Positions 8,645-60,856 of a stretch of 64,000 nucleotides of DNA are shown piece by piece. The stretch's first letter is position 1, and every line of letters starts with the position of its first letter. The notes under the pieces were generated by a model that saw nothing but the letters and a program-made list of their open reading frames with translations, was not told the DNA's origin and did no database searches. Both the position numbers and the translations under genes were made by a program. The stretch is from Salinivirgaceae bacterium. Its GTDB lineage: Bacteria; Bacteroidota; Bacteroidia; Bacteroidales; SZUA-534. The stretch lies in assembly GCA_027858735.1 (NCBI GenBank), contig JAQICC010000262.1, positions 1,879 to 65,878 of the forward strand, read 5' to 3'.

Positions 8645-8721
8645 AAAGAAAGAGATTTTGCGTGCATGTAGGGAGAAAAAAAGCGAGGCTTATGCCCCGC
8701 TTAATTATCGAATTGGTGGTA

Positions 8722-10728
8722 TTAAAAACCCAGTTTAAATACCAAAATATCTTGTTGTGGACTAAGCCTTGTAGTACTTACAATAGCAAAGTTTGCTTCA
8801 GCTGCAGTAATACCATTTAAAATTAAACCTCCAGGTAAATTAAATACCTTAGCTTCATTTACAGTTCCAGAAGCATCCACCTTTGCTATTATGACTTTAT
8901 CGTCAGCAGAAGTTCCAGCCAAAAGCACACCATTATCACCCAGTGGCGTTATCGATTCTACAATAGGAAGCTTTTTAGCATCAAAAGTCGATTCCCATAA
9001 TGTATTTCCCGATGCATCGTTAGCCATTACATAACCTTCCATTTCTTTAAGACCTGCAAATATTATATTCCCATTATTTGCAATGTTAACAGCGGTAATT
9101 TTAATTGCAGGATCCACAATTTTATCCCATTTTAAATAACCACTCTTATCAATAGCAAAATACCAAGTTTCATTTGCTACATAAGCTGTATTAGAGGCAT
9201 CTAAGGCCACTCCGTAAATAGTGCCACCCTGAGAATAATTCCTGCTCCAGAGTTTTCGGCCTCCTTCGTTCACTCGTATTAAAAATGGTTGCATAGTAGA
9301 ATCAGCTTCATTGTATGCATCGCCGCAAAGCAGTGCTTTACCATCAGGATAAAGAGCCAAACTTTTTACTTCGCTACCCTCAAGTTTATTGTTATAAATA
9401 TTTTTTCCATCGTCACCCATCTTAAACAACCAGGCTTTACCCGTGATGCTATCAATAACGGCATTGGTAATACCAGCAACATAAACCTCATTTGTCGGTG
9501 TTATTACCACCTTATTTACCTGATCATCAAATTTATTACCCAAAATATTATTATTAATCATTGTACCCTCAGCGTTCAATTCAAGGAACCATGCATCATA
9601 CATTGCATCTTTAGTAGCTTTCGTATTTGCGATTAATAATATCTCGCCATTAGGCCGAACAACAACATCTCCACCAAAGTCATTCATATTTTGATTATCA
9701 TAACCTTTTATAAACTTGTAGTTTTCCATTGGAAAGTCCATTAATACCTTTTGCCCCAGAGCTGTTGCTTTTAGGTTAAAAATATCGATATACATTTCGC
9801 CTTCGGGGTAAAGAGCAACGAATTTATTGTAGGCTTCAATCGTATTTACACTTTTCGCCCATTCAAATAATAACTGGCGGGTTAACACTTTAGCTTCAGG
9901 CATTTTGCTTGAATTTGGGTATTCGCGCATGAACTGTTCTATAATCTCTAAACTACGTGTTTTAGCTGCGTCTTTAAAAGCCAATACACCCATTAGTTTT
10001 TTGGCATCTTCCACCTGTTCAGCCTCAGGATATTGCGCAACAAAACCTTTTAGAGCCGATAAGCTATTTTTTGAGAGTGCATCTTTGTAGGCAATAGCGT
10101 TACGTTTTTTGTTGGCAACTTTTACTTGAGCCGCATCTGGGTACTTCTTTATAAAAGCGTTATAGGCTTCAACCGTATTTGTATTTTCAGCAGTACGGTA
10201 GTCAATATAATTGCGAATATGCTCTACGTTATTAACATACTTTGATTCAGGAAATTCTGCCAGAAATTTATTGGCGTATTCAAGTTTATTTTCCTCACGT
10301 ACAAACTTTATTAACTTTTCTTCAACAATACTGCTATACCACTCCATGTTTTTATTAATGGGCCTATTGCGTCTTCTTTTATCAACACGCGGAAAATATA
10401 GGTTTAATGTAGCTAAATCGTCGGGTGAAAATTGTGCTTGGTTTTTGTTAGCTACTTGAAAGTATTTCCAGGCTTCAAAATAGTTTCGTTTGCTATAAGT
10501 GTCATAGGAATAAACAATTGATAAGCCCAAACTGGCCATTGCATCATCTTTTTCTTTTGACAAGACTTTTAAAAATTGCTTCCTTGCTTTGTTCATATTG
10601 TCATCAATATCATCCTGATCTCGTGCATCCATGCCTTTAAAAACATCACCATCCATTACCTTATATGCTCTTTGAGCAGAAGCCGATAAGGTGAATAAAA
10701 CGAATATTACTAGGTATATATTTTTCAT
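8722..10728 (-). CDS. Secreted protein of unknown function, with helical repeats in the N-terminal half and a beta-rich C-terminal half
   Basis: Signal peptide MKNIYLVIFVLFTLSASAQ. The N-terminal half has recurring F(x)xxYP(E/D)xxx helical repeats (FLAEFPESKY, FIKKYPDAAQ, FVAQYPEAEQ, FMREYPNSSK, FVALYPEGEM). The C-terminal half has G/D/N-rich strand repeats that look propeller-like. No specific family recognised. Confidence 0.55.
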   Translation of the reverse strand: MKNIYLVIFVLFTLSASAQRAYKVMDGDVFKGMDARDQDDIDDNMNKARKQFLKVLSKEKDDAMASLGLSIVYSYDTYSKRNYFEAWKYFQVANKNQAQFSPDDLATLNLYFPRVDKRRRNRPINKNMEWYSSIVEEKLIKFVREENKLEYANKFLAEFPESKYVNNVEHIRNYIDYRTAENTNTVEAYNAFIKKYPDAAQVKVANKKRNAIAYKDALSKNSLSALKGFVAQYPEAEQVEDAKKLMGVLAFKDAAKTRSLEIIEQFMREYPNSSKMPEAKVLTRQLLFEWAKSVNTIEAYNKFVALYPEGEMYIDIFNLKATALGQKVLMDFPMENYKFIKGYDNQNMNDFGGDVVVRPNGEILLIANTKATKDAMYDAWFLELNAEGTMINNNILGNKFDDQVNKVVITPTNEVYVAGITNAVIDSITGKAWLFKMGDDGKNIYNNKLEGSEVKSLALYPDGKALLCGDAYNEADSTMQPFLIRVNEGGRKLWSRNYSQGGTIYGVALDASNTAYVANETWYFAIDKSGYLKWDKIVDPAIKITAVNIANNGNIIFAGLKEMEGYVMANDASGNTLWESTFDAKKLPIVESITPLGDNGVLLAGTSADDKVIIAKVDASGTVNEAKVFNLPGGLILNGITAAEANFAIVSTTRLSPQQDILVFKLGF

Positions 10729-27557: not shown

Positions 27558-27819
27558 CTTAACATAATGACGAATCATTTTTTGGTAATAATAAAATCCA
27601 TATAGGTTTTAAAATCAACTGCTTAAGAATTTTTAATTTATATGTATCTGATTTAGTGAGGGTTGAAAAATGTAAAAAAAATATTTTTCCTAATAAATTG
27701 ATTAGTAACCCCATACTAAATATATCAAAAAGTCAATAGAAAATTAATTTTTTTTTTAGCTTTTTTTTCACAAAATTGCCGTTCGTTTAAGGGGATCAAC
27801 ATAAATATTATTAACCAAA

Positions 27820-29247
27820 ATGATAAAAGACTACCAACAAGTGTGGAATAACTGTTTACGAGTTATCAAAGACAATGTGCCTGCAATAAGTTTCAGAACC
27901 TGGTTTGAACCAATTGTGCCGTTAAAAATTGATAAAAATATTTTAACGATTCAAGTTCCAAGCCCGTTTTTTTATGAATACTTAGAAGAACAGTACATTG
28001 ATATTCTTAGGAAAACCTTGAGAACAGAAATGGGCATTGATGCCAAGCTTGAATACAGTGTTATTATGGAAAATAATGTGTATTCAAACTCAAATCCATA
28101 CACGGTTAAATTACCAACAAATGATAGAAGAGATATAAGTAATAAGCCATTGTCTTTACCCCTTGACGAACAAAAGACGATCAAAAATCCTTTTATTATT
28201 CCAGGTATACAAAAACTACATGTTGATCCACAATTAAATCCGATTAATAATTTCAATAATTTTGTTGAAGGAGAATGTAACAGACTGGCAAGATCTGCGG
28301 GTTTTGCAGTTGCAAATAATCCTGGCAAAACAGCTTTCAATCCCCTATTTTTATATGGTGCTTCTGGTTTAGGCAAATCACATCTGGCACAAGCTATTGG
28401 TATTCAGGTTAAAGAAAAATTTTCTGAGAAGGTTGTATTGTATGTAAACGGAAATAAATTCCATACACAATTTGTAGAAGCAATTTTAAATAATAACAGA
28501 AACGATTTTGTGCACTTTTACCAAATGATTGATGTTTTAATTATTGATGACGTACATGAATTTGCAGGTAAAGAAAAAACTCAAGATATATTCTTCCACA
28601 TATTCAATCATTTACACCAAAATAGCAAACAGCTCATACTAACTTCAGACAAATCACCTGTTGATTTGAAAGGAATGGAGCAAAGACTTCTTTCAAGGTT
28701 TAAATGGGGACTGTCAGCCGATTTGCAAGCTCCTGATTATGAGACGCGTATTGCCATACTTAAACAAAAAGTATATAATGATGGCTTGAATTTATCTGAT
28801 GAAGTTATAGAATATATTGCATCACATATAACTGCTAATATTCGCGAATTAGAGGGAGCCCTTATTTCGTTGTTGGCACAATCAACTCTTAACAAAAAAG
28901 AGCTGACGCTTGATTTAGCCCGACGAATGATCGATCGTTTGGTAAAAAATACAAAGCGTGAAATTTCTATTGATTATATTCAGAAGGTAGTATGCGATTA
29001 TTTCAATATGCCTCATGAGATAATTAATTCAAAAACAAGAAAAAGAGAGATTGTTCAGGCTCGTCAAATAGCTATGTTCTTTGCAAAAAGCCTTACCAAG
29101 TCGTCGTTAGCAACTATTGGTTCTCAAATTGGTGGAAAAGATCATGCTACAGTATTGCATGCTTGCAAAACTGTAAATAACCTAATTGATACCGACAAGC
29201 GGTTTAGAGGATATATTGATGAAATTGAAAAGAAATTTAAAGTTTAA
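27820..29247 (+). CDS. dnaA: Chromosomal replication initiator protein DnaA
   Basis: 475 aa. Walker A GASGLGKSHL, Walker B LIIDDVH, NIRELEGAL, and C-terminal DNA-binding KTRKREIVQARQIAMFF...IGGKDHATVLHA. Confidence 0.97.
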   Translation: MIKDYQQVWNNCLRVIKDNVPAISFRTWFEPIVPLKIDKNILTIQVPSPFFYEYLEEQYIDILRKTLRTEMGIDAKLEYSVIMENNVYSNSNPYTVKLPTNDRRDISNKPLSLPLDEQKTIKNPFIIPGIQKLHVDPQLNPINNFNNFVEGECNRLARSAGFAVANNPGKTAFNPLFLYGASGLGKSHLAQAIGIQVKEKFSEKVVLYVNGNKFHTQFVEAILNNNRNDFVHFYQMIDVLIIDDVHEFAGKEKTQDIFFHIFNHLHQNSKQLILTSDKSPVDLKGMEQRLLSRFKWGLSADLQAPDYETRIAILKQKVYNDGLNLSDEVIEYIASHITANIRELEGALISLLAQSTLNKKELTLDLARRMIDRLVKNTKREISIDYIQKVVCDYFNMPHEIINSKTRKREIVQARQIAMFFAKSLTKSSLATIGSQIGGKDHATVLHACKTVNNLIDTDKRFRGYIDEIEKKFKV

Positions 29248-29451: not shown

Positions 29452-31575
29452 ATGAAAGCTTTACTCTCAATTATTATTTCAGTATTTTTTGTTTTAGTAT
29501 TAATAAGCACATCATTGGCTCAACAATCTCCAGTTAAGCGTTCAAACAATAAAGTTGAACTTAATGGTAAAGCCTATTACATTCACATAGTACGCAAGGG
29601 TGAAACGCTTTATGGTATTAGTGAGGCATATAAAACAAGTGTGGATACCATTAAAAAAGATAACTTACATCTTTCGAACGATCTTAAGGTTAACCAATAC
29701 CTTAAAATTGGGTTCAAAAAGCAAGAAGAAAGTAATAAAAATCAATTTGTATATCATGAAGTGAAAAAGGGTGATACACCCTACAATGTTTCGGTACGTT
29801 ATGGTGTTACCATTAATGATTTATATAAAGTGAACCCTACAGCAAAAATGGGCATTGGTATTGGTGAGATTCTGAAAATACCTTTAAAGGCACATGAAAA
29901 TTTACAATTGAACGATACTATACCAGAAACTCAAAAAGAAATAAATAGTTATTTAGTACATACAGTGCAAAAAAGGGAAACCATTTATGGAATAGCTGCA
30001 AGTTTCAAAACAACACAAGAAGAAATTAAAAAATTAAACCCGCAATTAATAGATAAGCCCTTGCAGATTGGTGATGAGTTGAAAATTCCAGGGGGGCTAC
30101 TTGAAAAAGCGAATGCCGACTCCGAATTTTACTTTCATAAAGTAAAAAAACAAGAGACTATATATAAAATTACCCGCCAATATCAAATTAAAGAGAGGCA
30201 GTTATATAAGTTAAATTCTGGCTTAAAAGACCGTGCTATTATGATTGGTGAATTGGTGAAAATTCCAAAAAATACGATTTCGGATTCAATATTTTTACAA
30301 GATAAACCTACTGTTGATAGTATATATACAGAGCCGCAAAATGATCAGTTTGTGCTTTGGACAGATTCATTGATTTTACCACCCTGCCCTATAGTTGGAG
30401 TCGATACCATAACTAAATATAAAGTAGCATTTTTTCTACCTTTTTATTTAAACATAAACGATACACTTGGAAAGTATGTAGATATAGTTGTTCGAGATGA
30501 AGATGGACATGAACATATTGAAACTGTTCAACGAACAGGAAATGTAGAAGATAAAATATATCCTAGATCGAAACTTTTCATCAACTTTTATCAAGGAGCA
30601 TTGCTCGCGCTTAAAAATTTAAAAGACATGGGTGTTTCTATTGATATTCATGTATTTGACACGCAGAATGATAGTTTGCATCTTTCACAAATATTAAAAG
30701 CCAGCAAATTTGAAAACTTTGATTTATTTATAGGGCCTGTATTTGGTGATATGTTAAAAATTGTGGGCGATTATGCCTGGGAACATCACATAAATATAGT
30801 TTCGCCACTTTCAAACGATAATGAATTTATAGACCATAATCCGTATGCATTTCAAGTAATTCCCCCACTTGAAGTGCAAATGCAACATGCTTCTGATTAT
30901 TTAAATAGTATTGACACTAAGAATTATATAGTAATTCATGATGGCAAAAATTTGGATCAAGAATATATTTCTCAATTCAAAAGACAATTATTTGCTCAAA
31001 TGAACAATGAAAACTTTGATCAGATAAAATATAACGAAGTATTGTATTACGATGCCCGTGATAGTGTTTTAAAGGAGGTTTTTACTAAAGGTATGGAAAA
31101 CATTGTAATAGTACCTTCAAGTAATCAGGCATTTGTTACCGATATACTGGGCAAATTAAATGGTTATTCATACGAATACAATATTAAAATATTTGGACAA
31201 CCATTATGGTCGCGTTTTGAAAATATAGAACTCGATAATTTTCATAATACAAATACGCATATTTTTTCGAATTCATTTATCGATTATAGTCAAGCTAATG
31301 TTTCAAGCTTTGTACAATCATATCGCTATCACTTTAAAGGTGAACCTAATAAATATGCATTTCAGGGATATGATATTACAAAATACTTTTGCCTGGCGTT
31401 AAATAAATATGGTCGCGATTTTAGGAAATGTATTCATATGCATGATCCTGAATTATTGCAAACAAGTTATCGTTTTGTTCCATTTTCCGATCAAGGGGGA
31501 TATCAGAACACTTCAATTTTTATTTTAGAATATTCAAAAAGTAATAGGCTAAATAAAGTTGCCCAATTTCCTTAG
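29452..31575 (+). CDS. LysM-repeat protein fused to a periplasmic-binding-protein (type 1)-like domain
   Basis: Signal peptide, then four LysM-like units (YHIVRKGETLYGISEAY, YHEVKKGDTPYNVSVRY, VHTVQKRETIYGIAASF, FHKVKKQETIYKITRQY), followed by a ~400-aa PBP-like C-terminal region. Confidence 0.8.
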   Translation: MKALLSIIISVFFVLVLISTSLAQQSPVKRSNNKVELNGKAYYIHIVRKGETLYGISEAYKTSVDTIKKDNLHLSNDLKVNQYLKIGFKKQEESNKNQFVYHEVKKGDTPYNVSVRYGVTINDLYKVNPTAKMGIGIGEILKIPLKAHENLQLNDTIPETQKEINSYLVHTVQKRETIYGIAASFKTTQEEIKKLNPQLIDKPLQIGDELKIPGGLLEKANADSEFYFHKVKKQETIYKITRQYQIKERQLYKLNSGLKDRAIMIGELVKIPKNTISDSIFLQDKPTVDSIYTEPQNDQFVLWTDSLILPPCPIVGVDTITKYKVAFFLPFYLNINDTLGKYVDIVVRDEDGHEHIETVQRTGNVEDKIYPRSKLFINFYQGALLALKNLKDMGVSIDIHVFDTQNDSLHLSQILKASKFENFDLFIGPVFGDMLKIVGDYAWEHHINIVSPLSNDNEFIDHNPYAFQVIPPLEVQMQHASDYLNSIDTKNYIVIHDGKNLDQEYISQFKRQLFAQMNNENFDQIKYNEVLYYDARDSVLKEVFTKGMENIVIVPSSNQAFVTDILGKLNGYSYEYNIKIFGQPLWSRFENIELDNFHNTNTHIFSNSFIDYSQANVSSFVQSYRYHFKGEPNKYAFQGYDITKYFCLALNKYGRDFRKCIHMHDPELLQTSYRFVPFSDQGGYQNTSIFILEYSKSNRLNKVAQFP

Positions 31576-32028
31576 CGAAATAACAACTATAAAAAAGCAG
31601 AGCAGTCAAGTTAATATTCGCCTTTAATACCTGTTGTACAAATAGCTTCTGCATAAACATCACAAAATAAGCGATTTAAGAAATTTTGAAAATAGAAATA
31701 CAATGTGATATGTTCTATTTACACTAAAAACTCAAACCTATTAAAGCATCATAATACATTGATTAAATGCGTTTTGCATTAAAATTACCTGCCTGAGAAT
31801 TGAATATTTTTTACAACGTGTACTATAATGAGAAAATATAAAGGAAATTAAGTGGTTCAAGACAAAATCAAATGTTTCATATATGGGATAGTAATGAAAC
31901 TATTAATGAACAAATAACTTAAAAGCTGAATGGTGAAGATTTTAGAGGCAATTTATCAAACCCAGACAGGATTACATATGTAATCTAAGCAAATATACAA
32001 ATGTAACGCACCGAAATGACCATAAAAT

Positions 32029-33063
32029 TTACTTTTGTAACTTTGCAATTTCCTTATTTATATTTCTTGCTATTGCTGGTCCTTCGTAAATAAAACCTGT
32101 ATATACTTGCACTAATGTTGCTCCAGCATTTATTTTATCTAAGGCATCCTGAGCTGTAAATATGCCTCCAACGCCTATAATTGGGAGTTTCCCAGAGGTT
32201 TTTTCAGAAATATATTTTATAATATCTGTTGATCTATCCTTAATTGGTTTTCCACTAAGTCCGCCATTTCCAATACCTTCCACTATTGATGATTCAGTAG
32301 TTAAATCATCTCGAGATGTTGTTGTATTTGTGGCAATTACTCCATCAATGTTACAACGTTTTATAACATCGAGTGTTTCATTAATTTGGTGAACATTCAA
32401 ATCAGGAGAAATTTTAAGCAGGATCGGTTTATACGGTGAAAATTCAGTGCGTTTGTCATTAAGTGTTTTCAAAATAAGCTCCAGCGATTCTTGGTCTTGG
32501 AGTTTATGTAGGTCAGTAACGTTAGGACAACTAACGTTCACTACAATATAGTCAACCACATTATATAAGCCCGTAAAACAGGCAAGGTAATCACTTAGTG
32601 CATCTTCATTTTTGGTTAGGGTGTTTTTGCCAATATTACCTCCAATAATTAGGTTTTTATTTCGTTTTCGAAGTTTAATAATAGCACTTTCAAGCCCCTT
32701 ATTATTAAAACCCATACGATTTATTAAAGCGTCATCGTTTATTAAGCGAAAAGAGCGTGGTTTTGCGTTGCCAGACTGAGGCTTTGGTGTAACCGTTCCA
32801 ATTTCTATGTGCCCAAATCCAAGTGAACCTAACATACTGTATACTTCAGCATTTTTATCAAGCCCGGCAGCTACTCCAACCTTATTTGGAAATTTAAGTC
32901 CAAACACTTCTGTTTTCATATGTAAACTACTAGGGTGAAATGCCCATTTAAATACTGGCTTAAGGCCAAAGGTTTGTCCACATTTTAAAGCCCTAAATAC
33001 TACCTTATGGGCTGTTTCGGGCAACATTTTGAATAGAATGGGGCGGATAAAGAGTTTATACAT
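32029..33063 (-). CDS. pyrD: Dihydroorotate dehydrogenase (quinone), class 2
   Basis: MYKLFIRPILFKMLPETAH, GFGHIEIGTVTP, NVSCPN, GVIATNTT, GGLSG and IGVGGI motifs. I prefer the ATG at 33063 over the TTG at 33087 used by the track. Confidence 0.93.
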   Translation of the reverse strand: MYKLFIRPILFKMLPETAHKVVFRALKCGQTFGLKPVFKWAFHPSSLHMKTEVFGLKFPNKVGVAAGLDKNAEVYSMLGSLGFGHIEIGTVTPKPQSGNAKPRSFRLINDDALINRMGFNNKGLESAIIKLRKRNKNLIIGGNIGKNTLTKNEDALSDYLACFTGLYNVVDYIVVNVSCPNVTDLHKLQDQESLELILKTLNDKRTEFSPYKPILLKISPDLNVHQINETLDVIKRCNIDGVIATNTTTSRDDLTTESSIVEGIGNGGLSGKPIKDRSTDIIKYISEKTSGKLPIIGVGGIFTAQDALDKINAGATLVQVYTGFIYEGPAIARNINKEIAKLQK

Positions 33064-34529
33064 TGTTTTTGCTGCAAATATATGCAAAATGTCGAATTTA
33101 TTTCATTTGAATAAAGTATTAATATGAAGTTTTTATGTATTCATGTAATTCTAGGGCACTATATTCATTTCCGAAAGAATTTAATGATTGATTATCGCTA
33201 CGATTACATATGTAAACTGTAGATTGATATGATTTATTGTTAATGCAATGGGTAGTTGGTCTTCCCATAAAACGACCTAAGGCAATTAATTAAATGTTTA
33301 ACTTTAAGGAGATAAAAAACGATAATAACCACAGCATGCTTGCTTGCTTGCCTGGAATAAAAACCACAACCCATCCAGATTATTTAGTGATGGGTTTTAG
33401 ATGATTATTACTAGGCATATTAAACTCAGTCAAGTCATTAGTTTTTTTTTGTTCAAAAGCATAGCCTGAATAATTCATAAAATTTGACAAAAAGCACATA
33501 TCTTTTTCATTATCTACACCTTATAATTTTCAAGTGTTAAAAATAGTTTGTCAATTTTACTAAAGTGCATTTATTTCAGCACATCTACTTCCTTGCAATC
33601 CCTTTGAAGTCGGGAACTACATCGACAGGTATTGCAAGTTGTATCTGCACTAAACTAAACGCATGAATTAATCAGCATAGAGATAAAATATATTATCCGT
33701 TTTTTAAAACAACCCAATAGCAATCTTATAAATATGGGTTAACTCTTACTTAATTCAATTGATCGGAATCATTATTCTTGCCGCAGCATAAATCGGGTTT
33801 ATAAGCTAACAGGCTTTCCGTTTTATAACTTCACTATAAAACATTGAATAAAGACGAATAACCTCAGTGTGATATAAAATTAGGGCAACTTAAATCTGCC
33901 TCTAAACTGTTTTGAAAGGTGTATAAGACAAGAACGTACTTTCCGCCACAACTAGTAAAGCGTTCTTGAATTAGTATTGCATTTGTTTAAGATTTTTTCT
34001 TTAGGAAAGGCAAAATTTGCAAGCATAGCCGTAGTTACGGTTAATAATTTCAACGTAGCATAAATGAGTAATAAATGGTAAACTTTTCGATTAAATGTGG
34101 TAAGGTTGCTAATTAATATATACCGTTAATTTATGAGCGCTTTACTAGATTAAATATATAGCTAGAGCAGTTAATCATAATTCTACAAGTAGCTTAAAAC
34201 AGTCTATATAAGCTTTCATAGCTTATCTCCATGGGGCTGAGCATAAAAACACCAGTTTTTCCTGACCTAAAAGATGCAAACAATAGATTTTTAGTGATGC
34301 GTAATGAGCTAAAACGCTTGATACTGAAATTAAGTCAATAACAAACATTATTAAGCATTGTGTATCTCGCTATATATTAGCAGTGTGAAAATACAGCGAA
34401 CAAGTAATAAAAGTACAAGGCAAGTGTTAAAATATGCGATAATTATTAGTTCATTGGATAGTAACAAGCTTAATTCAGCCTAGCCTAATTGTTTATCCTA
34501 TAAAGTACGACTTCTACGTTATGTTCGTC

Positions 34530-34576
34530 AAAAAAACAATCACCCCGTTGTTTCAATCGGGATGATTGGTTTTTTT
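34530..34576. terminator. Bidirectional intrinsic terminator (A7-stem-loop-T7)
   Basis: Stem CAATCACCCCG (34537-34547) / CGGGATGATTG (34558-34568), 10 of 11 pairs, with a 10-nt loop. It is flanked by A7 (34530-34536) and T7 (34570-76). It lies ~185 nt downstream of the XRE gene stop on the minus strand and closes the ORF-free tract on the plus strand. Confidence 0.8.
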
Positions 34577-34759
34577 CTGACTTTCACAAGCACTACCAGA
34601 TTGATTTAGTCAGACTGGCCTGAATTCGAACTTCATATTCAAACACCTGATTTTATTGACGGTATCTAGTTAGAAAAAGAAGGGAATAAATAAATATTTA
34701 CAAATGTAAATTTATAAAAAAGGTATCCTAAGCTAGAAGACTCTAAAAATACCTTTGGC

Positions 34760-35266
34760 TTATACCTCATCAGTATTGTTTGGTTTATATTCTGAAAAAG
34801 TTTTATCGCTATAAAAAATTACAATTTTCGAAACCTTTTTAGCTGGTAATTCATTATTTAAAGGAGGGGGATCTGTAAAGTTATCTTTATATTTTGGTGG
34901 ATCCTCCTCTTGTATTTCAGCAGCTTTAATTACATCCTTAAGCTCACCAGCAACATTATTTAGTTCATTATGCTTGTTTTGGGCAGTGTTTAAAGCGCTA
35001 TCTCCACTTGGCTCATTCTCGATAGCATCATAAATATTTGTTTGTATAGGAACTTTATATATGTCACCAACCCCTGTTATTAGCCATTCCGAATTGTATT
35101 TCGGATAGCTTATGAGTGTCTTTTGAAGAAAATCGAGACTTGGTTTATTTCTGCCCGATATTATATGTGATATACTAGAGCGTTGAACTCCAATAGAATC
35201 AGCAAATGCAGCGGATGTTAAGCCTTCAGAAGATATTATTCGAGCTAACCTATTTTTAATTTCCAT
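34760..35266 (-). CDS. XRE-family helix-turn-helix transcriptional regulator
   Basis: 168 aa. The N-terminal HTH reads LTSAAFADSIGVQRSSISHIISGRNKPSLDFLQK...NSEWLITGVGDIY. It has a low-complexity, P-rich middle and a C-terminal KIVIFYSDKTFSEY. Confidence 0.85.
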   Translation of the reverse strand: MEIKNRLARIISSEGLTSAAFADSIGVQRSSISHIISGRNKPSLDFLQKTLISYPKYNSEWLITGVGDIYKVPIQTNIYDAIENEPSGDSALNTAQNKHNELNNVAGELKDVIKAAEIQEEDPPKYKDNFTDPPPLNNELPAKKVSKIVIFYSDKTFSEYKPNNTDEV

Positions 35267-35280
35267 TAATTATCTATTTG

Positions 35281-35438
35281 TTACAAATGTAATAATAATA
35301 ATTTACATATGGAATCACAAATGTAATTTTCATTTCGACAGTCACGTGACATATGTAATTTCCTCAGCTACGATATGGTTCTATTTTTACTTCATGTCGA
35401 ACGTGTAATTAGCTAGATAACAGCTTTGTATGTGTAAT
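35281..35438. promoter_or_regulatory. Array of six same-orientation TnACAWATGTAAT repeats upstream of the XRE gene (candidate operators and/or promoters)
   Basis: The six units are TTACAAATGTAAT (35281), TTACATATGGAAT (35303), CACAAATGTAAT (35316), ACATATGTAAT (35349, abutting the palindrome GTCACGTGAC at 35341-35350), AACGTGTAAT (35400) and TATGTGTAAT (35429). On the minus strand, units 1 and 3 contain TACATTTG, which matches the Bacteroidota -7 consensus TAnnTTTG. The unit 1 box ends 17 nt before the ATG at 35266. Confidence 0.5.
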
Positions 35439-35929
35439 ATAATCGCATTTTTACGAAAAAAATCATAAAATTGCATAAAATACTTAGATTAAAGGTTTAA
35501 TTCAACTTCGTTAAGTGCTGACATTGTGACTTATAGCCTCTGTACATTATCCTGTTTACATATGCAAATGTAGAGCATTTTCAGCATTTCTGCTGGCTGT
35601 TTTGTGTCTAAATAATTGTTTGATTATGCTTTTATTCTAGAAATCTAAAATTATCTGATTTATTAGTTCTCCATATAAAAAACAGATTTTAGCCCCCACT
35701 CTTTATTATGATGAATTTTTAGTTGAACCCGAAAGTTTGTTATGGAAGACTTATTTTGGAAGAGATATTTGCCGGGTATGATATGCAAAATAAATTATAT
35801 TCAATTCTCAGGGGCTTAAAAATAGGTGTCACACGTCGTTAATTACCATACTAACAGCATATTATAGTGTTACTTTGGCTATATATGAGAGCTGAAAATT
35901 AAGAGGAAATAGAAAAAACATAGCTAAAA

Positions 35930-37087
35930 TTACAAATTTCTAAGCTTTTGTCCTGTTTTCAATACCAAGCATAATTCTTCGGCCGATTTTTGTAACCATA
36001 TAGCAGCCTTAGAAATTGAATTTTGCAAGGTCTCTGGTTTTCTGGAAATTGGCACTATTGCCGAAATTCCATTTTCGTATAAGATGGTTGTATTTTCTGT
36101 GGCATGTCCTGTAAAAACAAATACTGGTTTAGCATACGTTTGAGCTATCCTACCTATACCAACTGGTGTTTTTCCAGATGTAGTTTGTCCATCTACTTTT
36201 CCTTCAGCAGTAATTATAATATCGCAGCCTTTAATCTTTTCCAGTAAACCTATAAGATCAACAATTGTATCAAGCCCTGAACGAATTTCAGCATTTAAAA
36301 AGGCATGAAGTCCTGCTCCTAAGCCACCTGCAGCCCCGGCCCCTTGCATTTGCAAGACATCAATATTCATACATTCCTTAATCACCGAAGCTAGCCTAAA
36401 TAGATTTTTATCAAGTTTTTGAACCATTTGATTATCAGCTCCCTTTTGAGGCCCATATATTACTGAAGCACCCAATGAACCTGTCAAAGGTGAAACCACG
36501 TCAGTAGCAGCTATGATTTTAGTGTCTTTTAGTCTACTATCAATAGTTGAGATATCAATTGAGGTTAAGTTTGCTAAACTTCCGCCTCCCTCTCCAATAT
36601 CTTGCCCGTTATTATCCAGAAATTTTATACCCAAAGCCATTGCCATGCCTAATCCGCCATCGTTGGTCGCACTGCCACCTATACCAATAACCAACTTTTT
36701 ACACTTATAATTAAGTGCTTCCTTAATAAGTTGCCCGGTTCCATAAGTTGATGTTATCCATGGATTTCGTTCTTCCGTAGTAAGTTTTTCTATTCCACTC
36801 GCTGCAGTCATTTCAATTATGGCCGTATTTCCATTTTCAATTAAACCGAAAAAACCGTCTGTTTCTCTACCGATTGGATCTTGAACTTTAAGTTTAACAA
36901 TTTTTCCGCCTACAGCCGAAACTATACTTTCCACAGTGCCTTCACCTCCATCAGCCATTGGAATAACTTCAACATTAGCATTTTTAAAAACGTTACTAAT
37001 GCCTTTTTTTATATTCAAGCCAACCTCACTTGCACTCATGCAATCTTTAAATGAATCGGGCACAATTAAAAACGAAAGTTTGCACAT
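35930..37087 (-). CDS. Glycerate kinase
   Basis: 385 aa. IVPDSFKDCMSA, PMADGGEGT, GGSATNDGGLGM and YGPQKGA are glycerate kinase (GlxK/GarK family) signatures. Confidence 0.88.
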   Translation of the reverse strand: MCKLSFLIVPDSFKDCMSASEVGLNIKKGISNVFKNANVEVIPMADGGEGTVESIVSAVGGKIVKLKVQDPIGRETDGFFGLIENGNTAIIEMTAASGIEKLTTEERNPWITSTYGTGQLIKEALNYKCKKLVIGIGGSATNDGGLGMAMALGIKFLDNNGQDIGEGGGSLANLTSIDISTIDSRLKDTKIIAATDVVSPLTGSLGASVIYGPQKGADNQMVQKLDKNLFRLASVIKECMNIDVLQMQGAGAAGGLGAGLHAFLNAEIRSGLDTIVDLIGLLEKIKGCDIIITAEGKVDGQTTSGKTPVGIGRIAQTYAKPVFVFTGHATENTTILYENGISAIVPISRKPETLQNSISKAAIWLQKSAEELCLVLKTGQKLRNL

Positions 37088-45548: not shown

Positions 45549-47541
45549 TACTATAAATATGAACAATACTTTAGAAGAAAATGATGCATTCAAATATTTA
45601 CTGGAGCAATTTGCAGATTTAAAAATAATGAGGTTTAAAGTTCCTGGATTTGAAAGTCTTAAGCCCAAGCAAAAGGAACTTATATATTATTTAAGTGAAG
45701 CCGCTTTGTGTGGAAGAGATATTTTGTTCGATCAGAATTACAAGCACAACTTAAGTGTTAGAAGGACAAACGAGGCTATTTTAAATTCATTTTCTGGAGA
45801 TAAAAGCACACCTGATTTTAAAGAATTTGAAGTATATGCAAAACGTGTATGGTTTTCAAATGGAATTCATCACCACTATAGTACAGATAAATTTTTTCCG
45901 AAACTTAGCCAAGATATTTATGCCGAATATCTAAGTAATTGTAACGAACAACAACTACCTTTATTACATAACGAAACCGTTGAACAATTTACTGAGAGAA
46001 TTATACCTATAATTTTCGAACCTCAAATTGGGTCAAAAAAAATCGTTCTTGATGCAAGTAAAGATATTATTGCAGAATCGGCTACAAACTTTTACGATGG
46101 TTTAACCGAAAGTGAAGTAAATGAATACATTAGCAATTTTAAACAACCCGATGAGGATCGCCCTTTATCAATTGGCTTAAACAGTCAGCATGTTAAAAAA
46201 AATGGGGCCTTGCATGAACGAGTTTACAAGCAAAATGGATTGTATGGCAAAGCAATTGACAAAATTGTATATTGGCTTAATAAAGCAGTTGGAGCGGCAG
46301 AAACCAGTATGCAGCAAAAATTAATAAAAGTATTAATTGATTATTATAGAACTGGTGATTTAAAAACATGGGACGATTTTAATGTTCTATGGGTGCAAGA
46401 GCTTGAATCGGAAGTTGATTTTGTGAATGGCTTTATAGAAAATTATGGCGACCCTATGGGAATGAAAGCTACATGGGAAAGTATAGTGAATTTTAAAGAT
46501 ATAGAAGCTACAAAGCGAACTGAAATAATTAGTAATAATGCACAGTGGTTCGAAGATAATGCACCGATTGATCCGCGATTTAAAAAAGGAAAAGTAAAAG
46601 GAGTTTCTGCAAAAGTAATTACTGTCGCACAATTGGGTGGCGATTGTTACCCCTCTACTCCCATTGGAATTAATCTACCTAATGCCGATTGGATTCGCCG
46701 GGACTATGGTTCAAAATCAGTAACCATTGAAAACATATCAGATGCTTACCACAAAGCTGCGCAGGGCAATGGAATGCTTGAAGAGTTTTGCTATTCGCAG
46801 GAAGAGATTGAGCTGTCAAAGTACTATGGATCAATGGCTAGCAACCTACACGTCGATCTTCATGAGTGTTTGGGTCATGGTTCAGGTCAATTATTGCCTA
46901 ATACCAGTTCCGATGCCTTGAAAAACTACAGTTCTGCCTTAGAAGAAGCTCGTGCCGACCTATTTGCCTTATATTATATTGCCGATGAAAAATTGGTTGA
47001 ATTTGGTTTAATTCCGAATTTGGATGTAGCAAAAACTGAATATAACGGCTATATAAGAAATGGTATAATGACACAACTTACCCGAGTGCAATTAGGAAAA
47101 GATATAGAACAGGCACATATGAGAAACAGGCAACTTGTTTCGCAGTGGTGTTACGAAAAAGGAAAGGACGATAATGTTATTGAAATCCTTGAAAAAGAAG
47201 GAAAAACCTATATTGTTATAAATAATTACCAAATGCTTAGAAGTTTATTTGGTGATCTTTTAGCCGAAATTCAAAGAATAAAGTCGGAAGGTGATTATGA
47301 GGCTGGTAAACAGCTGGTTGAGACCTATGCTGTTCAGGTTGATCAGAAGCTGCATAAAGAAGTTCTTGATAGGTTTACCAAATTAAACATTGCTGCTTAC
47401 GGAGGCTTTATTAACCCATATTTTAAAGCTGTAATGAAAGAAGGAAAAATTACAGATGTAGAGATTGAATATGCAGACAGCTACTCTGAACAAATGCTTA
47501 AATATTCGAAAGAGTATTCGTATTTGCCTGATTATAACTAG
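45541..47541 (+). CDS. Dipeptidyl-peptidase III (M49 family metallopeptidase)
   Basis: 666 aa. Zinc motifs HECLGHGSGQL (HExxGH) and EEARAD (EExxAD/E). The start overlaps the mntP stop (ATGGATAA). Confidence 0.88.
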   Translation: MDNTINMNNTLEENDAFKYLLEQFADLKIMRFKVPGFESLKPKQKELIYYLSEAALCGRDILFDQNYKHNLSVRRTNEAILNSFSGDKSTPDFKEFEVYAKRVWFSNGIHHHYSTDKFFPKLSQDIYAEYLSNCNEQQLPLLHNETVEQFTERIIPIIFEPQIGSKKIVLDASKDIIAESATNFYDGLTESEVNEYISNFKQPDEDRPLSIGLNSQHVKKNGALHERVYKQNGLYGKAIDKIVYWLNKAVGAAETSMQQKLIKVLIDYYRTGDLKTWDDFNVLWVQELESEVDFVNGFIENYGDPMGMKATWESIVNFKDIEATKRTEIISNNAQWFEDNAPIDPRFKKGKVKGVSAKVITVAQLGGDCYPSTPIGINLPNADWIRRDYGSKSVTIENISDAYHKAAQGNGMLEEFCYSQEEIELSKYYGSMASNLHVDLHECLGHGSGQLLPNTSSDALKNYSSALEEARADLFALYYIADEKLVEFGLIPNLDVAKTEYNGYIRNGIMTQLTRVQLGKDIEQAHMRNRQLVSQWCYEKGKDDNVIEILEKEGKTYIVINNYQMLRSLFGDLLAEIQRIKSEGDYEAGKQLVETYAVQVDQKLHKEVLDRFTKLNIAAYGGFINPYFKAVMKEGKITDVEIEYADSYSEQMLKYSKEYSYLPDYN

Positions 47542-47707: not shown

Positions 47708-48358
47708 ATGTATCATAACATCCATAAAATTGAGAAAATCAGTCATCTAAATGATTCTACTTTTATATTGCAAATAGAGCGAAGGGATCTTAAATTTACA
47801 CCTGGTCAGCATTTGGTAGTGGGTAAAAAAGATGATAAAGAGTTCCGTCAGTATTCGTTATACAATGGAATAAACGACGACTATTTTCAGATTCTTGTGA
47901 AAGAAGTTGAAAACGGCTTGGTAACCCCAAAATTAAAAAACTTAAAAGAAGGCGATGAAGTTGAAATAAATGGCCCAATGGGTTATTTTACTCTTAGCGA
48001 AAGTACTCGAAAAAATTTACCCGTTGTAATGATTGCCACAGGCACCGGAATTGCTCCCTTTAAAAGCTTTGTGGTGTCCTATCCAGAATTGGATTATAAA
48101 TTAATACATGGTGTACGAACTGCCGAAGAAGCCTATGACAAAGAGTTGTACGCTAAGGACAAGTATATTCTATGTACTACTCGTGACGATAAGGGAACGG
48201 TAAAAGGACGGGTAACCGATTACATTTCTACCAAAACATTTCATAAGGATACGCAGTTTTATTTATGTGGAAATAGCGAAATGATTTTTGATGCAATGGA
48301 AATACTTAAGGAAAAAGGATTTTCTGCGAATCAGATGTTTGCTGAAGTTTATTTTTAA
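47708..48358 (+). CDS. Ferredoxin-NADP reductase-like FAD/NAD(P)-binding oxidoreductase
   Basis: 216 aa. RQYSLYN (RxYS FAD motif), MIATGTGIAPF (NAD(P)-binding GTGxAP), and YLCGNSEM. Confidence 0.8.
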   Translation: MYHNIHKIEKISHLNDSTFILQIERRDLKFTPGQHLVVGKKDDKEFRQYSLYNGINDDYFQILVKEVENGLVTPKLKNLKEGDEVEINGPMGYFTLSESTRKNLPVVMIATGTGIAPFKSFVVSYPELDYKLIHGVRTAEEAYDKELYAKDKYILCTTRDDKGTVKGRVTDYISTKTFHKDTQFYLCGNSEMIFDAMEILKEKGFSANQMFAEVYF

Positions 48359-49975: not shown

Positions 49976-51250
49976 ATGAACAATAAAAGTATCATTCAAA
50001 ACACTTGGTTGCCTATTAAATCAACATGAAACAGATTCGTTAGTGTCACATTTTGATAAAGAAGAATTCCATATAGTTGATTTTAAGCAATTAAGGTTAA
50101 TCCTAAAACTCAAATTTTGGTAACTGGCTGCATGGCTGAACAATTTTAAAAGGAGCTTGAAAGTATTGAGGGTGTTTCGTTAATTGTAAATAATTCGAAA
50201 AAGAGTGGTATTGTAAATTTGGTTAAGCAAAATATTTCAACAAATAAAATTCTGCAAAACAAAGAGAGTAATGTGTTTAGTTACCATGCCCTCAATAAAA
50301 GCTTGCATACACGTGCTGCCATAAAAATACAAGACGGTTGTGATAATTATTGCACCTTTTGTATTATCCCTCAAGTTAGAGGGAGGGCTGTTAGCCGTCC
50401 GGCAAACGAAATTATTGAAAGTATAAAACAGACTTTGAAGAATGGCTTTAAAGAAATTGTTATTACTGGAGTTAATATTGGCCGATATTATCATGATGGA
50501 GTACGATTTGTGGAATTGATTCGAACCATATTGGATATTCCTGGTGAATTCAGAGATAGAATATCATCGCTTGAGCCCGATGGTTTTGGCAATGACTTAG
50601 CAGAACTTTTTGAAAACCCAAAGCTTGCCCCCCATTTACATTTGTGTGTGCAATCGGGTTCTGATTCTATACTACTCAAAATGTGACGAATGTATAGTGT
50701 TGATTAATATATGGAACTTATCAATAATATAAAAACAAAATATCCCAACTTTAATATTACATCGGATATTATTGTAGGTTTTTCTGGTGAAACCGATCAT
50801 AATTTTAAGGAAACCTTAAATATTGTTGATAGAACAAAATTTAGCCATGTGCACACCTTTAAGTACAGTGTTAGAGAAAATACTTATGCCGAACGCATGA
50901 CCAATCAGGTGGATGAAAAAGTAAAAAATACAAGAAGTGATATGTTACGGCAAGCCTCAGAACAATACAAAAAGGACTACTACTCAGGTTTTATCGGGAA
51001 AACGAAACGTGTATTGGTGGAAAAACATATGGGTGATAACTGGTACTCAAGATATGGGGAACATTATATTCCAATTGTTTTTAAACTAGATAAAAATCAA
51101 AAGAACGAGTTTGTACATGTTAAAATCACAAAATTTGAACAAAGCGATAAACTTAAACTTGAAGGAATTGCTCAGCCATTTCACCTTAAAGAATATAGGG
51201 CTGCAAAAAATATATTATCGGAGTTAAATATAGGGGAGTGGAAATATTAA
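49976..51250 (+). pseudogene. Decayed tRNA threonylcarbamoyladenosine methylthiotransferase MtaB-like gene
   Basis: The pieces read MNNK, then a frameshift, then VSFKTLGCLLNQHETDSLV...VDFKQ. The NTC-motif segment is deleted. The sequence resumes NPKTQILVTGCMAEQF, then an in-frame TAA, then ...IQDGCDNYCTFCIIP...SILLKM, then TGA, RMYSVD, TAA, and YMELINN...SDIIVGFSGETD. Track ORFs 50219..50686 and 50711..51250 are in the same frame. Confidence 0.88.
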
Positions 51251-60782: not shown

Positions 60783-60856
60783 GGTCGCGTAGCTCAGCTG
60801 AATAGAGCAATAGCCTTCTAAGCTATGGGTCCCAGGTTTGAGTCCTGGCGCGATCA
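60783..60856 (+). tRNA. tRNA-Arg (anticodon TCT)
   Basis: Hand-folded 74-nt cloverleaf. Acceptor GGTCGCG/CGCGATC. D arm GCTC-AGCTGAATA-GAGC. Anticodon arm ATAGC-CTTCTAA-GCTAT, with TCT in the loop centre. Variable loop GGGTC. T arm CCAGG-TTTGAGT-CCTGG. Discriminator base A. Confidence 0.93.

Follow-up and report, generated by a model that had tools for sequence, protein, structure and literature searches.

A 1.7-kb ORF-free tract between an XRE regulator gene and pyrD in a Salinivirgaceae bacterium: a probable lineage-specific expansion of a normally short spacer

Introduction

Autoregulated repressors of the XRE/CI type use multiple palindromic operators, as lambda CI does with OR and OL. 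The locus described here lies in a 64,000-nucleotide stretch of DNA from a Salinivirgaceae bacterium, the whole of which was analysed and is referred to as the window. It resembles XRE/CI-type systems in that the XRE gene is preceded by 3-4 dyad-symmetric sites, spaced ~22-34 nt apart over its own promoter, and in that more site clusters, hundreds to thousands of bp away, flank the XRE-pyrD unit on both sides. Unlike lambda CI, the XRE protein, whose DNA binding is predicted, carries neither an S24 peptidase nor a known C-terminal oligomerisation domain, only a short C-terminal motif, and its neighbour is a housekeeping pyrimidine gene rather than a set of phage functions.

The operators of BlaI, MecI and CopY contain a TACANNTGTA core (PMC7253601), and the palindrome that recurs in this locus, TTACA-N2-TGTAA, includes exactly that core; these proteins, unlike the XRE regulator, are winged-helix proteins of the Penicillinase_R family. 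Non-canonical LexA repressors of Bacteroidetes, which have an S24 peptidase domain, are associated with the motifs GGA-N5-TCC, CTAA-N5-TTAG and TTAC-N5-GTAA (PMC8565304). The present locus is similar in combining a CI-like HTH regulator with short AT-rich palindromes in its own promoter, where binding by XRE is predicted. A non-canonical LexA or SOS box was nevertheless rejected, as the motif spacing differs and the XRE protein lacks the S24 domain. A further part of the locus is a small palindromic element, which we take to resemble REP/BIME repeats and MITEs such as the Correia elements of Neisseria.

The XRE-pyrD pair and the tract that separates it

The genes concerned, the tract and a variable spot within it are as follows.

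32029-33063, minus strand: pyrD, quinone-dependent dihydroorotate dehydrogenase
33064-34759, no strand: ORF-free tract, interpreted as an enlarged, derived form of the spacer between XRE and pyrD
33543-33621, no strand: polymorphic, assembly-fragile spot, where differences from contig L170 and the end of contig L081 fall
34760-35266, minus strand: gene for an XRE-family HTH regulator of 168 aa

A preliminary description of this DNA reported that the interval from the pyrD start to the XRE stop is free of ORFs of at least 60 aa, and this holds, the longest being 49 aa. At 1672 nt the gap far exceeds every other in the window, the next in size being the two flanking spacers of 663 and 453 nt; from 31576 to 35929, a distance of 4354 bp, only 1542 bp are coding, in line with the low coding content noted before. 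All ORF-free gaps across 1.99 Mb of related Bacteroidota loci are smaller. The tract is genuine sequence, confirmed by contig L170 from a different metagenome sample, which covers dnaA-LysM-pyrD-tract-XRE with 99.93% identity. Four of the five differences between L170 and the window are at 33543, 33546, 33552 and 33611, and polymorphisms are confined to the tract, with none in 4.6 kb of flanking genes, a pattern compatible with relaxed constraint, though four SNPs/indels are too few to measure it.

The preliminary description overlooked that the tract splits a conserved gene pair. In the XRE protein a variable linker separates the conserved N-terminal HTH from a C-terminal motif, KIVIFYxDxTFxEYxP, that is conserved as well, and Pfam and NCBIfam searches predict the HTH only (HTH_3/HTH_19). 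The protein of L170 is a natural delta-C36 variant. The order common to the closest relatives is GpgS-amylase-(glycerate kinase)-XRE-pyrD-LysM-dnaA, and the spacer is 70 nt in the closest syntenic relatives, L163 and L165. In at least 45 related Bacteroidota loci XRE immediately precedes pyrD, both genes lying on one strand and only 31-250 nt apart, and the tract is therefore taken to be a derived expansion. Judged from these loci, the ancestral arrangement was XRE-(30-150 nt)-pyrD on one strand, in place of which the lineage of the window has 1.7 kb.

Longer spacers were found in sister lineages, 292 nt in L168 and 679 nt in L166 and L167, all ORF-free. These are intermediate in size and unrelated in sequence, and no homology was found between them and the tract; the graded series suggests that the spacer is permissive to such growth. 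Similarity between the window and its relatives ends at 33082-33124 on one side and at 34788 on the other, and at the nucleotide level the interior is conserved neither in the nearest relatives nor in the expanded spacers among them. Alignment of the syntenic spacers, proposed earlier as a way to detect conserved structure, yielded no alignable relative for the tract as a whole. Closer relatives were sought in a genome collection, in metagenomes, among 5.8 billion proteins and by exact-protein look-ups, and only the same strain was found; that strain aside, the nearest XRE protein is 56% and the nearest PyrD 65% identical. With no close relative, missing conservation is weak evidence, since alignment would fail for neutral DNA and for quickly evolving RNAs alike.

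In seven relatives, RNase P RNA accounts for the long stretches without ORFs that precede XRE. This RNA is absent from the window according to the Rfam search; the window also lacks a ~100-nt AT-rich block that is conserved past rnpB in relatives.

Operator-like palindromes and promoters

A conserved operator-like palindrome is the organising feature of the entire low-coding stretch, a point that had also escaped the preliminary description.

31972-32006, no strand: two palindrome sites just past the pyrD stop, one perfect (31972) and one with a single mismatch (31995)
33075-33082, minus strand: pyrD -7 promoter box TATATTTG, 11 nt upstream of the ATG
33204-33215, no strand: perfect operator-like palindrome TTACATATGTAA, 141 nt upstream of the pyrD ATG
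34698-34709, no strand: perfect palindrome TTACAAATGTAA
34708-34701, minus strand: Bacteroidota -7 box TACATTTG, inside palindrome TTACAAATGTAA and facing the palindromic element
34719-34756, minus strand: AT-rich hairpin with U-run, terminator-like, directly after the XRE stop (from folding; perfect 8-bp arms)
35281-35358, no strand: four palindrome sites (35281, 35303, 35315 and 35347) directly upstream of the XRE start

TTACA-N2-TGTAA has a density of 3.81 per kb in the non-coding DNA of the module, compared with 0.12 per kb in non-coding DNA elsewhere (31-fold, p=3e-33), and 160 sites fall within the -700 to 0 regions of 50 loci as against 104 in the other 607 kb. In the array upstream of XRE, the proximal site overlaps the XRE -7 box (35291-35284); an additional site is present at 35556, and the array architecture recurs in ~50 loci. 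Sites downstream of the pyrD stop are also found in the nearest relatives, and the expanded spacers of L166 and L168 contain one analogous palindrome each. On this distribution, the motif is a candidate operator, probably of the XRE regulator. Binding of the same palindrome core by a BlaI/CopY-type protein is a formal alternative; the module always encodes an XRE gene and never a Penicillinase_R protein.

Sequence around the pyrD -7 box is conserved in relatives whatever the length of the spacer. The suggestion that the tract is a protein-binding cis region is supported at its edges, by the palindromes at 34698 and 33204, the pyrD promoter and the hairpins after XRE, but not elsewhere in the tract. 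Duplication of the regulatory regions upstream of XRE or downstream of pyrD was rejected as a source of the tract, Smith-Waterman scores being within those of shuffles.

A palindromic repeat element within the tract

The tract also holds a member of a palindromic repeat family, a further feature missed at first.

34485-34672, minus strand: 188-nt palindromic repeat element, REP/MITE-like (nhmmer and covariance model)
34530-34576, no strand: apical hairpin of the element, with A and T runs at its flanks

Homologous copies of 150-190 nt were detected with nhmmer in two distant Bacteroidales MAGs, four units in L016 (WFZU01) and one in L021 (JASGMZ01). The covariance model, R1, scores 104.9 bits in the window and 77.3 bits in L021, which was not used to train it. 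Compensatory changes occur in 19 of the 37 consensus pairs, in an alignment of 4-5 sequences only, and 91% of the cells at paired positions are paired (77% in shuffles); the consensus folds at -28.6 kcal/mol on the element strand and -18.6 on the other. The four L016 units lie within 6 kb, with tandem copies at both contig ends, whereas the 64-kb window and the L021 locus have one copy each. Terminal inverted repeats are seen in L016 (ATAGCTAGAGTCCGTCTATAATGTC and the reverse complement TTAGATAGTGCCTGTCCATAAAGTC) and in L021, where the arms are ~29 nt (local-alignment score 20), and are weaker in the window copy. No direct repeat that would represent a target-site duplication was found at the four copy boundaries (window, L021 and the two L016 arrays), the boundaries being imprecise. 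The family has no match in Rfam or among plasmids, phages and viral contigs.

The strong bidirectional terminator assigned previously to 34530-34576 does exist, has A and T runs and is very stable, but it forms the apex of the 188-nt element, and the tract does not end there. The minus strand gives the more stable hairpin, with a G-U pair where the plus strand has a C-A mismatch.

In comparison with REP/BIME and MITE families (reviewed in PMC3184786, PMC10969869 and PMC11602168), the element is likewise small (150-190 nt), non-coding and intergenic, has a long hairpin and terminal inverted repeats, is multicopy (including tandem pairs in L016), is common to distantly related genomes and can offer terminator-like hairpins for both strands. 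It departs from MITEs in having no visible target-site duplication and a single copy in the 64-kb window. We know of no cognate transposase. The element is a new repeat of the REP/MITE type or else a small RNA.

Coding signal in the interior

Eroded genes were among the possibilities raised in the preliminary description; a recent pseudogene is refuted by the absence of a coding signal and of any protein match. There are 37-49 stops per 565 codons across all frames, where ~44 are expected; the dicodon log-odds of the tract are -0.20, the same as for the shuffled tract, and the period-3 SNR is 1.13 compared with 8-21 in genes. Pfam searches of all six frames gave nothing at E<=1. For the frameshift-tolerant protein comparison suggested earlier, a 1341-aa concatenate of six-frame fragments was searched against 5.8e9 proteins and had no match at E<=10.

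An older event, in which one or more genes inserted between XRE and pyrD have eroded completely, is unlikely. Genes can land at this site, since locus L001 has a 432-aa ORF (no Pfam match) inserted at exactly the XRE-pyrD position, and other genes in the window seem disrupted, for example a split MtaB at 50219-51250. However, neither residual coding signal of any kind nor a Pfam match is present, the search among 5.8 billion proteins was negative, and 8071 stop-to-stop ORFs taken from the first 80 related loci (pyrD neighbours), the gene inserted in L001 included, gave nothing better than E=0.003 in the tract by tblastn; a further tblastn search at E<=1 found no remnant either. The 292-nt and 679-nt expansions of the sister lineages are likewise ORF-free.

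Small and long RNAs

Apart from the element, two structures in the interior were examined.

33558-33677, minus strand: long imperfect hairpin (-39.8 kcal/mol; z by strand: minus -3.5, plus -1.4)
33952-34148, no strand: 197-bp unit between 22-nt inverted repeats (86% complementary), no homologs

The three helices verified by hand in the preliminary description are all present; the nested pair at 33592-33638 is included in the long hairpin, and the helix at 33929/33961 overlaps the 197-bp unit. The region 33558-33677 folds far better on the gene strand, an RNA-level hint that our main model leaves unexplained.

That the element, possibly with the second long hairpin, represents genes for small structured RNAs is a rather improbable proposal, to which we give little more than one chance in ten. 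Transcription would start at the -7 box 34708-34701 and end at the U-run past the apical hairpin, giving a ~165-nt RNA that would share its regulator with XRE and pyrD. In the window a -7 box precedes the element by 36 nt, and in L016 one precedes the tandem pair by 42 nt, so the element could be expressed; its structure is conserved by the compensatory changes described above, its consensus folds better on the element strand, and in all three genomes a copy lies inside XRE-pyrD non-coding DNA. All loci were gathered around pyrD, so this association is partly ascertainment. Orientation relative to XRE and pyrD varies, however, the window element running with the two genes and those of L016 and L021 against them, and no -7 box faces the element in L021. 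The tandem copies at both contig ends of L016 resemble dispersed repeats, a stop at the apical hairpin would omit the 3' arm of the conserved long stem, and pairing is also kept by palindromic DNA repeats.

Extended to the whole tract, and a little less probable still, the element would be the first of an undescribed family of structured sRNAs co-regulated within the XRE-pyrD module, and the tract a regulatory platform, not junk. If this were true, the tract would combine an sRNA gene, an insulator and distant operators looping to the arrays that flank the module, with the sRNA promoter overlapping the TTACA-N2-TGTAA operator of the regulator.

One or more long structured non-coding RNAs, the first candidate of the preliminary description, are very unlikely to be encoded by the tract. 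Its size and absence of ORFs, the two very stable local structures and a terminator-like hairpin that works on either strand would suit such RNAs. Rfam should contain the large bacterial RNA families OLE, GOLLD, HEARO, ROOL and group II introns. The proposed Rfam search, with the whole window at gathering score, returned only a tRNA-Arg at 60783, and at E<=10 the region 31400-36100 gave only five sub-threshold chance matches of 13.8-28.7 bits; a search for tRNA and tmRNA in the tract found none. The mean folding z of the tract, -0.2 to -0.33 against dinucleotide shuffles, is background, the flanks being the same, and folding stands out only at 33560-33680 and 34460-34640. The six perfect 8-bp hairpins of the tract are within chance (3.0 +/- 2.25 in dinucleotide shuffles, with six or more in 43 of 300). 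Neither strand has an internal canonical promoter, no TAnnTTTG -7 box being found on either between 33100 and 34690; a sigma-70 promoter scan, uninformative in this phylum, was at chance level (25 vs 25.2). Relatives show no conservation of the tract as a whole, and the closest syntenic relatives lack it.

The tract had also been said to carry copies of repeat modules seen elsewhere in the window. These were not recovered, as self-BLAST (E<=0.1) and nhmmer (E<=1) gave no match to the tract in the rest of the window, and tandem repeats in it are only trivial ones. A plasmid or phage origin was rejected, there being no match by blastn in distant mode.

Replication origin and assembly

A replication origin or other chromosome-level cis locus is extremely improbable: dnaA (27820-29247) is 4 kb away and the tract is AT-rich and without genes, but DnaA-box-like sequences (<=1 mismatch) are at chance level across the window (24 vs 23), GC skew tracks gene orientation with no switch at the tract, and L165 keeps the order dnaA-LysM-pyrD-XRE with only 70 nt at this position. 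As a candidate oriC the tract was rejected, having one DnaA box (TTATCCACA-like, one mismatch, 33510) and no cluster. An assembly artefact or chimeric MAG join has an equally negligible chance of being correct, for although contig L081 from another assembly stops at 33621, inside the tract, it is fully identical over 33621-34759 and its 3 mismatches in 11.6 kb are all outside the tract, the single L170 contig from a different sample crosses the entire tract, and relatives share the gene order on both flanks.

Discussion

The explanation we favour, and consider probable, is that the tract arose when the normally short XRE-pyrD spacer was enlarged, in this lineage specifically, by non-coding DNA. 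As far as sequence comparison can tell, the extra DNA has no coding signal, no detected homology to a protein or RNA family and no conservation, and at least one piece of it, 34485-34672, belongs to a repeat family found in other Bacteroidales genomes. The spacer would have grown through insertion of small palindromic or mobile non-coding elements together with other, now unrecognisable DNA. Among the proposed inserted pieces, only one has demonstrable relatives.

The functional parts of an expanded spacer of this kind would sit at its edges. The very stable apical hairpin of the element probably halts transcription arriving from XRE, and pyrD probably relies on a conserved promoter of its own (-7 box 33082-33075) that gives a nearly leaderless transcript. 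The border palindromes at 34698 and 33204 probably supplement the operator arrays that precede XRE and follow pyrD. They would hold the module under one DNA-binding protein, for which the XRE regulator is the likeliest candidate. The interior of ~1.2 kb (33216-34484) is most likely selectively inert.

For the 1.7-kb gene desert near dnaA the outcome is mostly a negative result, in that it is most probably neither a long RNA nor an origin and is not a recent pseudogene, which saves follow-up. The tract nevertheless contains a 150-190-nt element with strong compensatory pairing, outside the Rfam families, that supplies its strong terminator-like hairpin. No description of the XRE-pyrD-palindrome module was found in the literature searched. 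Across Bacteroidales and allied lineages an XRE regulator is stably paired with pyrD amid palindrome arrays, and this module offers a testable hypothesis for the control of pyrimidine synthesis, or at least of pyrD, about which little is known in this phylum.

An ORF-free interval between pyrD and an XRE regulator gene

The longest ORF on either strand between the start of pyrD (33063, minus strand) and the stop of the XRE-family HTH regulator gene (34760, minus strand; XRE below) is 49 aa, in agreement with the ORF-free tract (33064-34759) of the preliminary description. In a greedy gene map this gap, at 1672 nt, is the largest in the 64-kb window, and the next largest, at 663 and 453 nt, are the outer spacers of XRE and pyrD, respectively. 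Internal ORF-free gaps of at least 1 kb occur only seven times in 1.99 Mb of related Bacteroidota loci, and none equals the tract in length. An assembly artefact is ruled out by L170, a contig from another metagenome sample that spans dnaA-LysM-pyrD-tract-XRE at 99.93% identity; a further contig, L081, includes 33621-34759. The nearest genes are as follows.

27820-29247, plus strand: dnaA
29452-31575, plus strand: LysM/periplasmic-binding protein gene
32029-33063, minus strand: pyrD, quinone-dependent
34760-35266, minus strand: XRE regulator gene, 168 aa

Further flanking genes are predicted to encode a glycerate kinase, a sucrose-phosphorylase-like enzyme and a glucosyl-3-phosphoglycerate synthase. 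The source is an uncultured member of the Bacteroidota, and NCBI assigns the XRE protein to a Salinivirgaceae MAG. A 22-nt inverted repeat (31792-31813 and 35791-35812; 16 nt perfect, 91% overall) encloses the whole low-coding stretch of pyrD, tract, XRE and outer spacers, and no counterpart of it was found in relatives.

Expansion of a conserved gene pair

Loci around pyrD homologs were taken from species-representative genomes and metagenomes. In 45 loci, pyrD is immediately preceded by a co-oriented XRE homolog, and the two genes are 31-250 nt apart (usually 35-65 nt). The nearest XRE homologs (51-56% identity) are found on contigs with the extended gene order of the window; L165 carries GpgS-amylase-XRE-pyrD-LysM-dnaA with a 70-nt spacer. 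The spacer is also 70 nt in L163 and L164, and is 292 nt in L168 and 679 nt in L166 and L167. A comparably long interval is present only in L001, a Salinivirgaceae MAG, where it is occupied by an intact 432-aa ORF (8647-9945) with no Pfam match, indicating that gene insertions are also tolerated in this spacer. Towards pyrD, nucleotide similarity between the window and relatives stops at 33082-33124, and towards XRE it stops at 34788. Because the spacers of relatives are short and similarity ends at the tract borders, the long spacer is a derived state, best read from these comparisons as a conserved gene pair that was moved apart by insertion or by expansion of the spacer. When syntenic spacers were compared, as had been proposed, the expanded spacers of L166 and L168 showed no similarity above shuffles to the tract or to each other, and the spacer has expanded to differing extents in sister lineages.

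Another recurrent neighbour of the module is tRNA-Lys: one to three of these genes lie on the opposite strand just downstream of pyrD in L010, L011, L017, L021, L027 and L096, and are absent from the window. In seven relatives, rnpB (RNase P RNA; 229-254 bits) shares the strand of XRE and is located approximately 0.7-1.1 kb upstream of it.

L008: 8078-8460
L090: 4464-4842
L092: 4258-4654
L093: 4401-4787
L098: 1608-2006
L101: 4266-4665
L116: 3992-4386

In the same seven, rnpB is followed after some 90-220 nt by an AT-rich block (tGATATATCAa ... cTGTATATCA) that is conserved and measures about 100 nt. Together these explain part of the long ORF-free regions upstream of XRE in relatives; neither is present in the window.

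Coding potential

The tract is non-coding. Stop codons number 37-49 per 565 codons across the six frames, as in random sequence (about 44 expected at 31% GC). With a dicodon model trained on the genes of the window, the mean best-frame log-odds is -0.20, compared with -0.19 for shuffles of the tract and +0.39 for genes, and the tract maximum (0.047) is below the 5th percentile of genes (0.20). Three-base periodicity is 1.13, versus 8-21 in neighbouring genes. The search for protein remnants envisaged in the preliminary description was run, and none was recovered: the six frames have no Pfam match at E≤1, tblastn queried with the 8071 stop-to-stop ORFs of the first 80 related loci gave a best E no lower than 0.003, and all 35 stop-to-stop segments of 24 aa or longer, joined into one query, matched none of 5.8 billion proteins at E≤10. 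Random stops, the missing gene-like dicodon and periodicity signal and the lack of protein matches exclude a recent pseudogene, refuting the decayed relic in its recent form, and that an ancient gene has been wholly eroded here is improbable.

Elsewhere in the window, adjacent ORFs at 50219-50686 and 50711-51250 match consecutive parts of a MiaB/MtaB-type radical-SAM methylthiotransferase, and the split represents either a frameshift, a pseudogene or a sequencing error.

RNA genes, promoters and replication origin

The long ncRNA suggested earlier finds no support in Rfam families, folding excess or an internal -7 box. Rfam, searched as had been recommended, gave zero matches to the region at the gathering score and five chance-level matches at E≤10, and no tRNA or tmRNA was found in the tract. 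The three helices described by hand are present, and the six perfect 8-bp hairpins of the tract are within chance (3.0 ± 2.25 in shuffles, at least six in 43/300). Mean sliding-window folding z-scores (-0.2 and -0.33) equal those outside the tract. The repeat modules said to be shared between the tract and other parts of the window were not recovered in searches of the window. Other features of the tract are listed below.

33558-33677, minus strand: long imperfect hairpin holding the nested helices described earlier, -39.8 kcal/mol, z -3.5 (plus strand, z -1.4)
33952-34148: 197-bp unit with 22-nt inverted repeats at its ends
34756-34719: AT-rich hairpin and U-run directly after the XRE stop

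No homologs of the 33558-33677 hairpin were found. It coincides with the only polymorphic spot relative to L170, as four of the five differences fall in 33543-33611, versus zero in 4.6 kb of flanking coding sequence, and L081 ends at 33621, inside the hairpin region. The segment 33543-33621, next to or inside the hairpin, takes in all four differences of the tract from L170 and marks a local hot spot, either of variation between strains or of difficult assembly.

The Bacteroidota -7 consensus TAnnTTTG is absent from both strands within 33100-34690, and a scan for it found boxes only at the tract edges.

34708-34701, minus strand: -7 box
33082-33075, minus strand: -7 box, 11 nt upstream of the pyrD ATG

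The pyrD box and its surroundings (tTATATTTGcagcaaaaaca-ATG) are kept in relatives at any spacer length, and because of this conservation pyrD is predicted to have its own, nearly leaderless promoter.

A replication origin was rejected, as DnaA-box-like sites occur across the window about as often as chance predicts, with only one (one mismatch) in the tract, and the syntenic L165 has just 70 nt at this position. The very AT-rich spacer upstream of dnaA (27558-27819) contains overlapping palindromes (27666-27765). Classical DnaA boxes are at chance frequency across the window, and the chromosome's true oriC was not located.

The palindromic repeat within the tract (34485-34672)

With the tract as query and the full 2 Mb of fetched loci as target, nhmmer returned a single family of matches, in which window positions ~34416-34674 resemble a unit of ~150-180 nt. 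The 6-kb contig L016 carries four units, arranged in tandem as two pairs; one pair immediately precedes pyrD and the second is located at the opposite end of the contig. Each unit has inverted-repeat termini and shares four conserved blocks, which surround a variable hairpin. The hairpin reported as a strong bidirectional terminator (34530-34576) is present, but is the variable apical hairpin of the window copy. In the RNAalifold prediction the units form a long extended hairpin with 37-38 pairs, at -28.6 (window minus strand) versus -18.6 kcal/mol. A covariance model built from the five units recovered a full-length copy outside the training set in L021 (1683-1833, 77 bits, E ~1e-13), 172-322 nt upstream of XRE, and nothing else in 2.1 Mb besides the training units. 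In the model alignment, which holds few sequences, is fitted to the model and includes one row that is a palindromic self-hit, 91% of cells pair versus 77% in shuffles (0/500 reach 91%), both sides have changed in 19 of 37 pairs (6.1 ± 1.9 in shuffles), and pairing falls to 33-42% when partners are slid out of register.

Membership of 34485-34672 in this repeat family is evident from the sequence matches, and it is filed as a REP/MITE-like palindromic repeat, strict MITE membership being unproven. No target-site duplications are evident at the copies. Viral contigs, plasmids and phages gave no copies of the element, and Rfam gave no match. Expression of the element as an sRNA is possible but not favoured, because a -7 box precedes it by 36 nt in the window and by 42 nt in L016, but L021 has no such box pointing towards it, and its orientation relative to XRE and pyrD varies among genomes. 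The repeat family, with no earlier match and with strong compensatory pairing, is a by-product that belongs among the more interesting results.

Palindromic sites of the XRE-pyrD module

With up to one mismatch allowed, the window contains 15 copies of the 12-mer palindrome TTACA-N2-TGTAA, and 11 of these, including all four perfect copies, fall within 31576-35929. Its core, ACAWATGTAA, is found 10 times against 0.9 expected.

35281-35358: four palindromes directly upstream of XRE, the proximal one overlapping the XRE -7 box
35556: single palindrome
34698: single palindrome, 62 nt downstream of the XRE stop
33204: single palindrome, 141 nt upstream of pyrD
31972 and 31995: two palindromes just downstream of pyrD

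The cis-acting region proposed earlier was borne out as short elements at the tract edges, but not beyond them. The same palindrome architecture is present in ~50 loci of diverse Bacteroidota, with arrays at -7 to -120 from the XRE start, spaced ~22-34 nt, and distal clusters at -500 to -1000; in the nearest relatives palindromes also lie just 3′ of pyrD. Non-coding DNA of 52 loci holds 3.81 palindromes/kb in the module versus 0.12/kb elsewhere (31-fold, p=3e-33), and the expanded spacers of L166 and L168 contain exactly one perfect palindrome each. Example arrays among loci L001-L168 are L112 5261-5325 and L097 1100-1167, the window module being 31972-35567.

The simplest reading takes the palindrome as a putative operator for the XRE protein, which would then regulate both its own gene and pyrD. 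Another binder, of the BlaI/MecI/CopY type, is a formal alternative because the core TACANNTGTA is common to the operators of these repressors (PMC7253601). The non-canonical LexA family of Bacteroidetes (PMC8565304) was considered and rejected. No description of an XRE-pyrD module in Bacteroidota was found in the literature searched.

The XRE family (4480 homologs at E≤1e-10) has an HTH, a variable linker and a conserved C-terminal KIVIFYxDxTFxEYxP. In L170, from the same organism in another sample, an in-frame 108-nt deletion (L170 7118-7366, corresponding to 34766-34873 in the window) costs the protein its last 36 residues, this motif among them (ending ...KDNFTV*), and represents either a naturally truncated form of the regulator or an error in assembly. 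Two one-mismatch palindromes 27 nt apart (47423-47461) lie upstream of an FAD/NAD-binding oxidoreductase gene (47708-48358; 216 aa), the product of which shows similarity, below threshold, to the electron-transfer subunit of dihydroorotate dehydrogenase. These sites may be another target of the same regulator, or due to chance.

Proposed history

Ancestrally, XRE and pyrD were 30-150 nt apart and probably partly co-transcribed, pyrD also having a promoter internal to the pair. The spacer has grown to 1.7 kb in this lineage, probably through insertion of at least one palindromic element and of other DNA. Transcription leaving XRE would first meet the hairpin with its U-run, followed by the element's very stable apical hairpin, and is therefore probably insulated from pyrD, which would be transcribed from its own conserved promoter. 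The extra operator-like palindromes at both borders may hold the two promoters in one repression network. The remaining ~1.2 kb of the tract is most likely inert. The tract is an unusually large, lineage-specific intergenic expansion with a palindromic repeat, real and ordinary in kind. More interesting than the tract is a by-product, the conserved XRE-pyrD module with its highly specific palindromic site.
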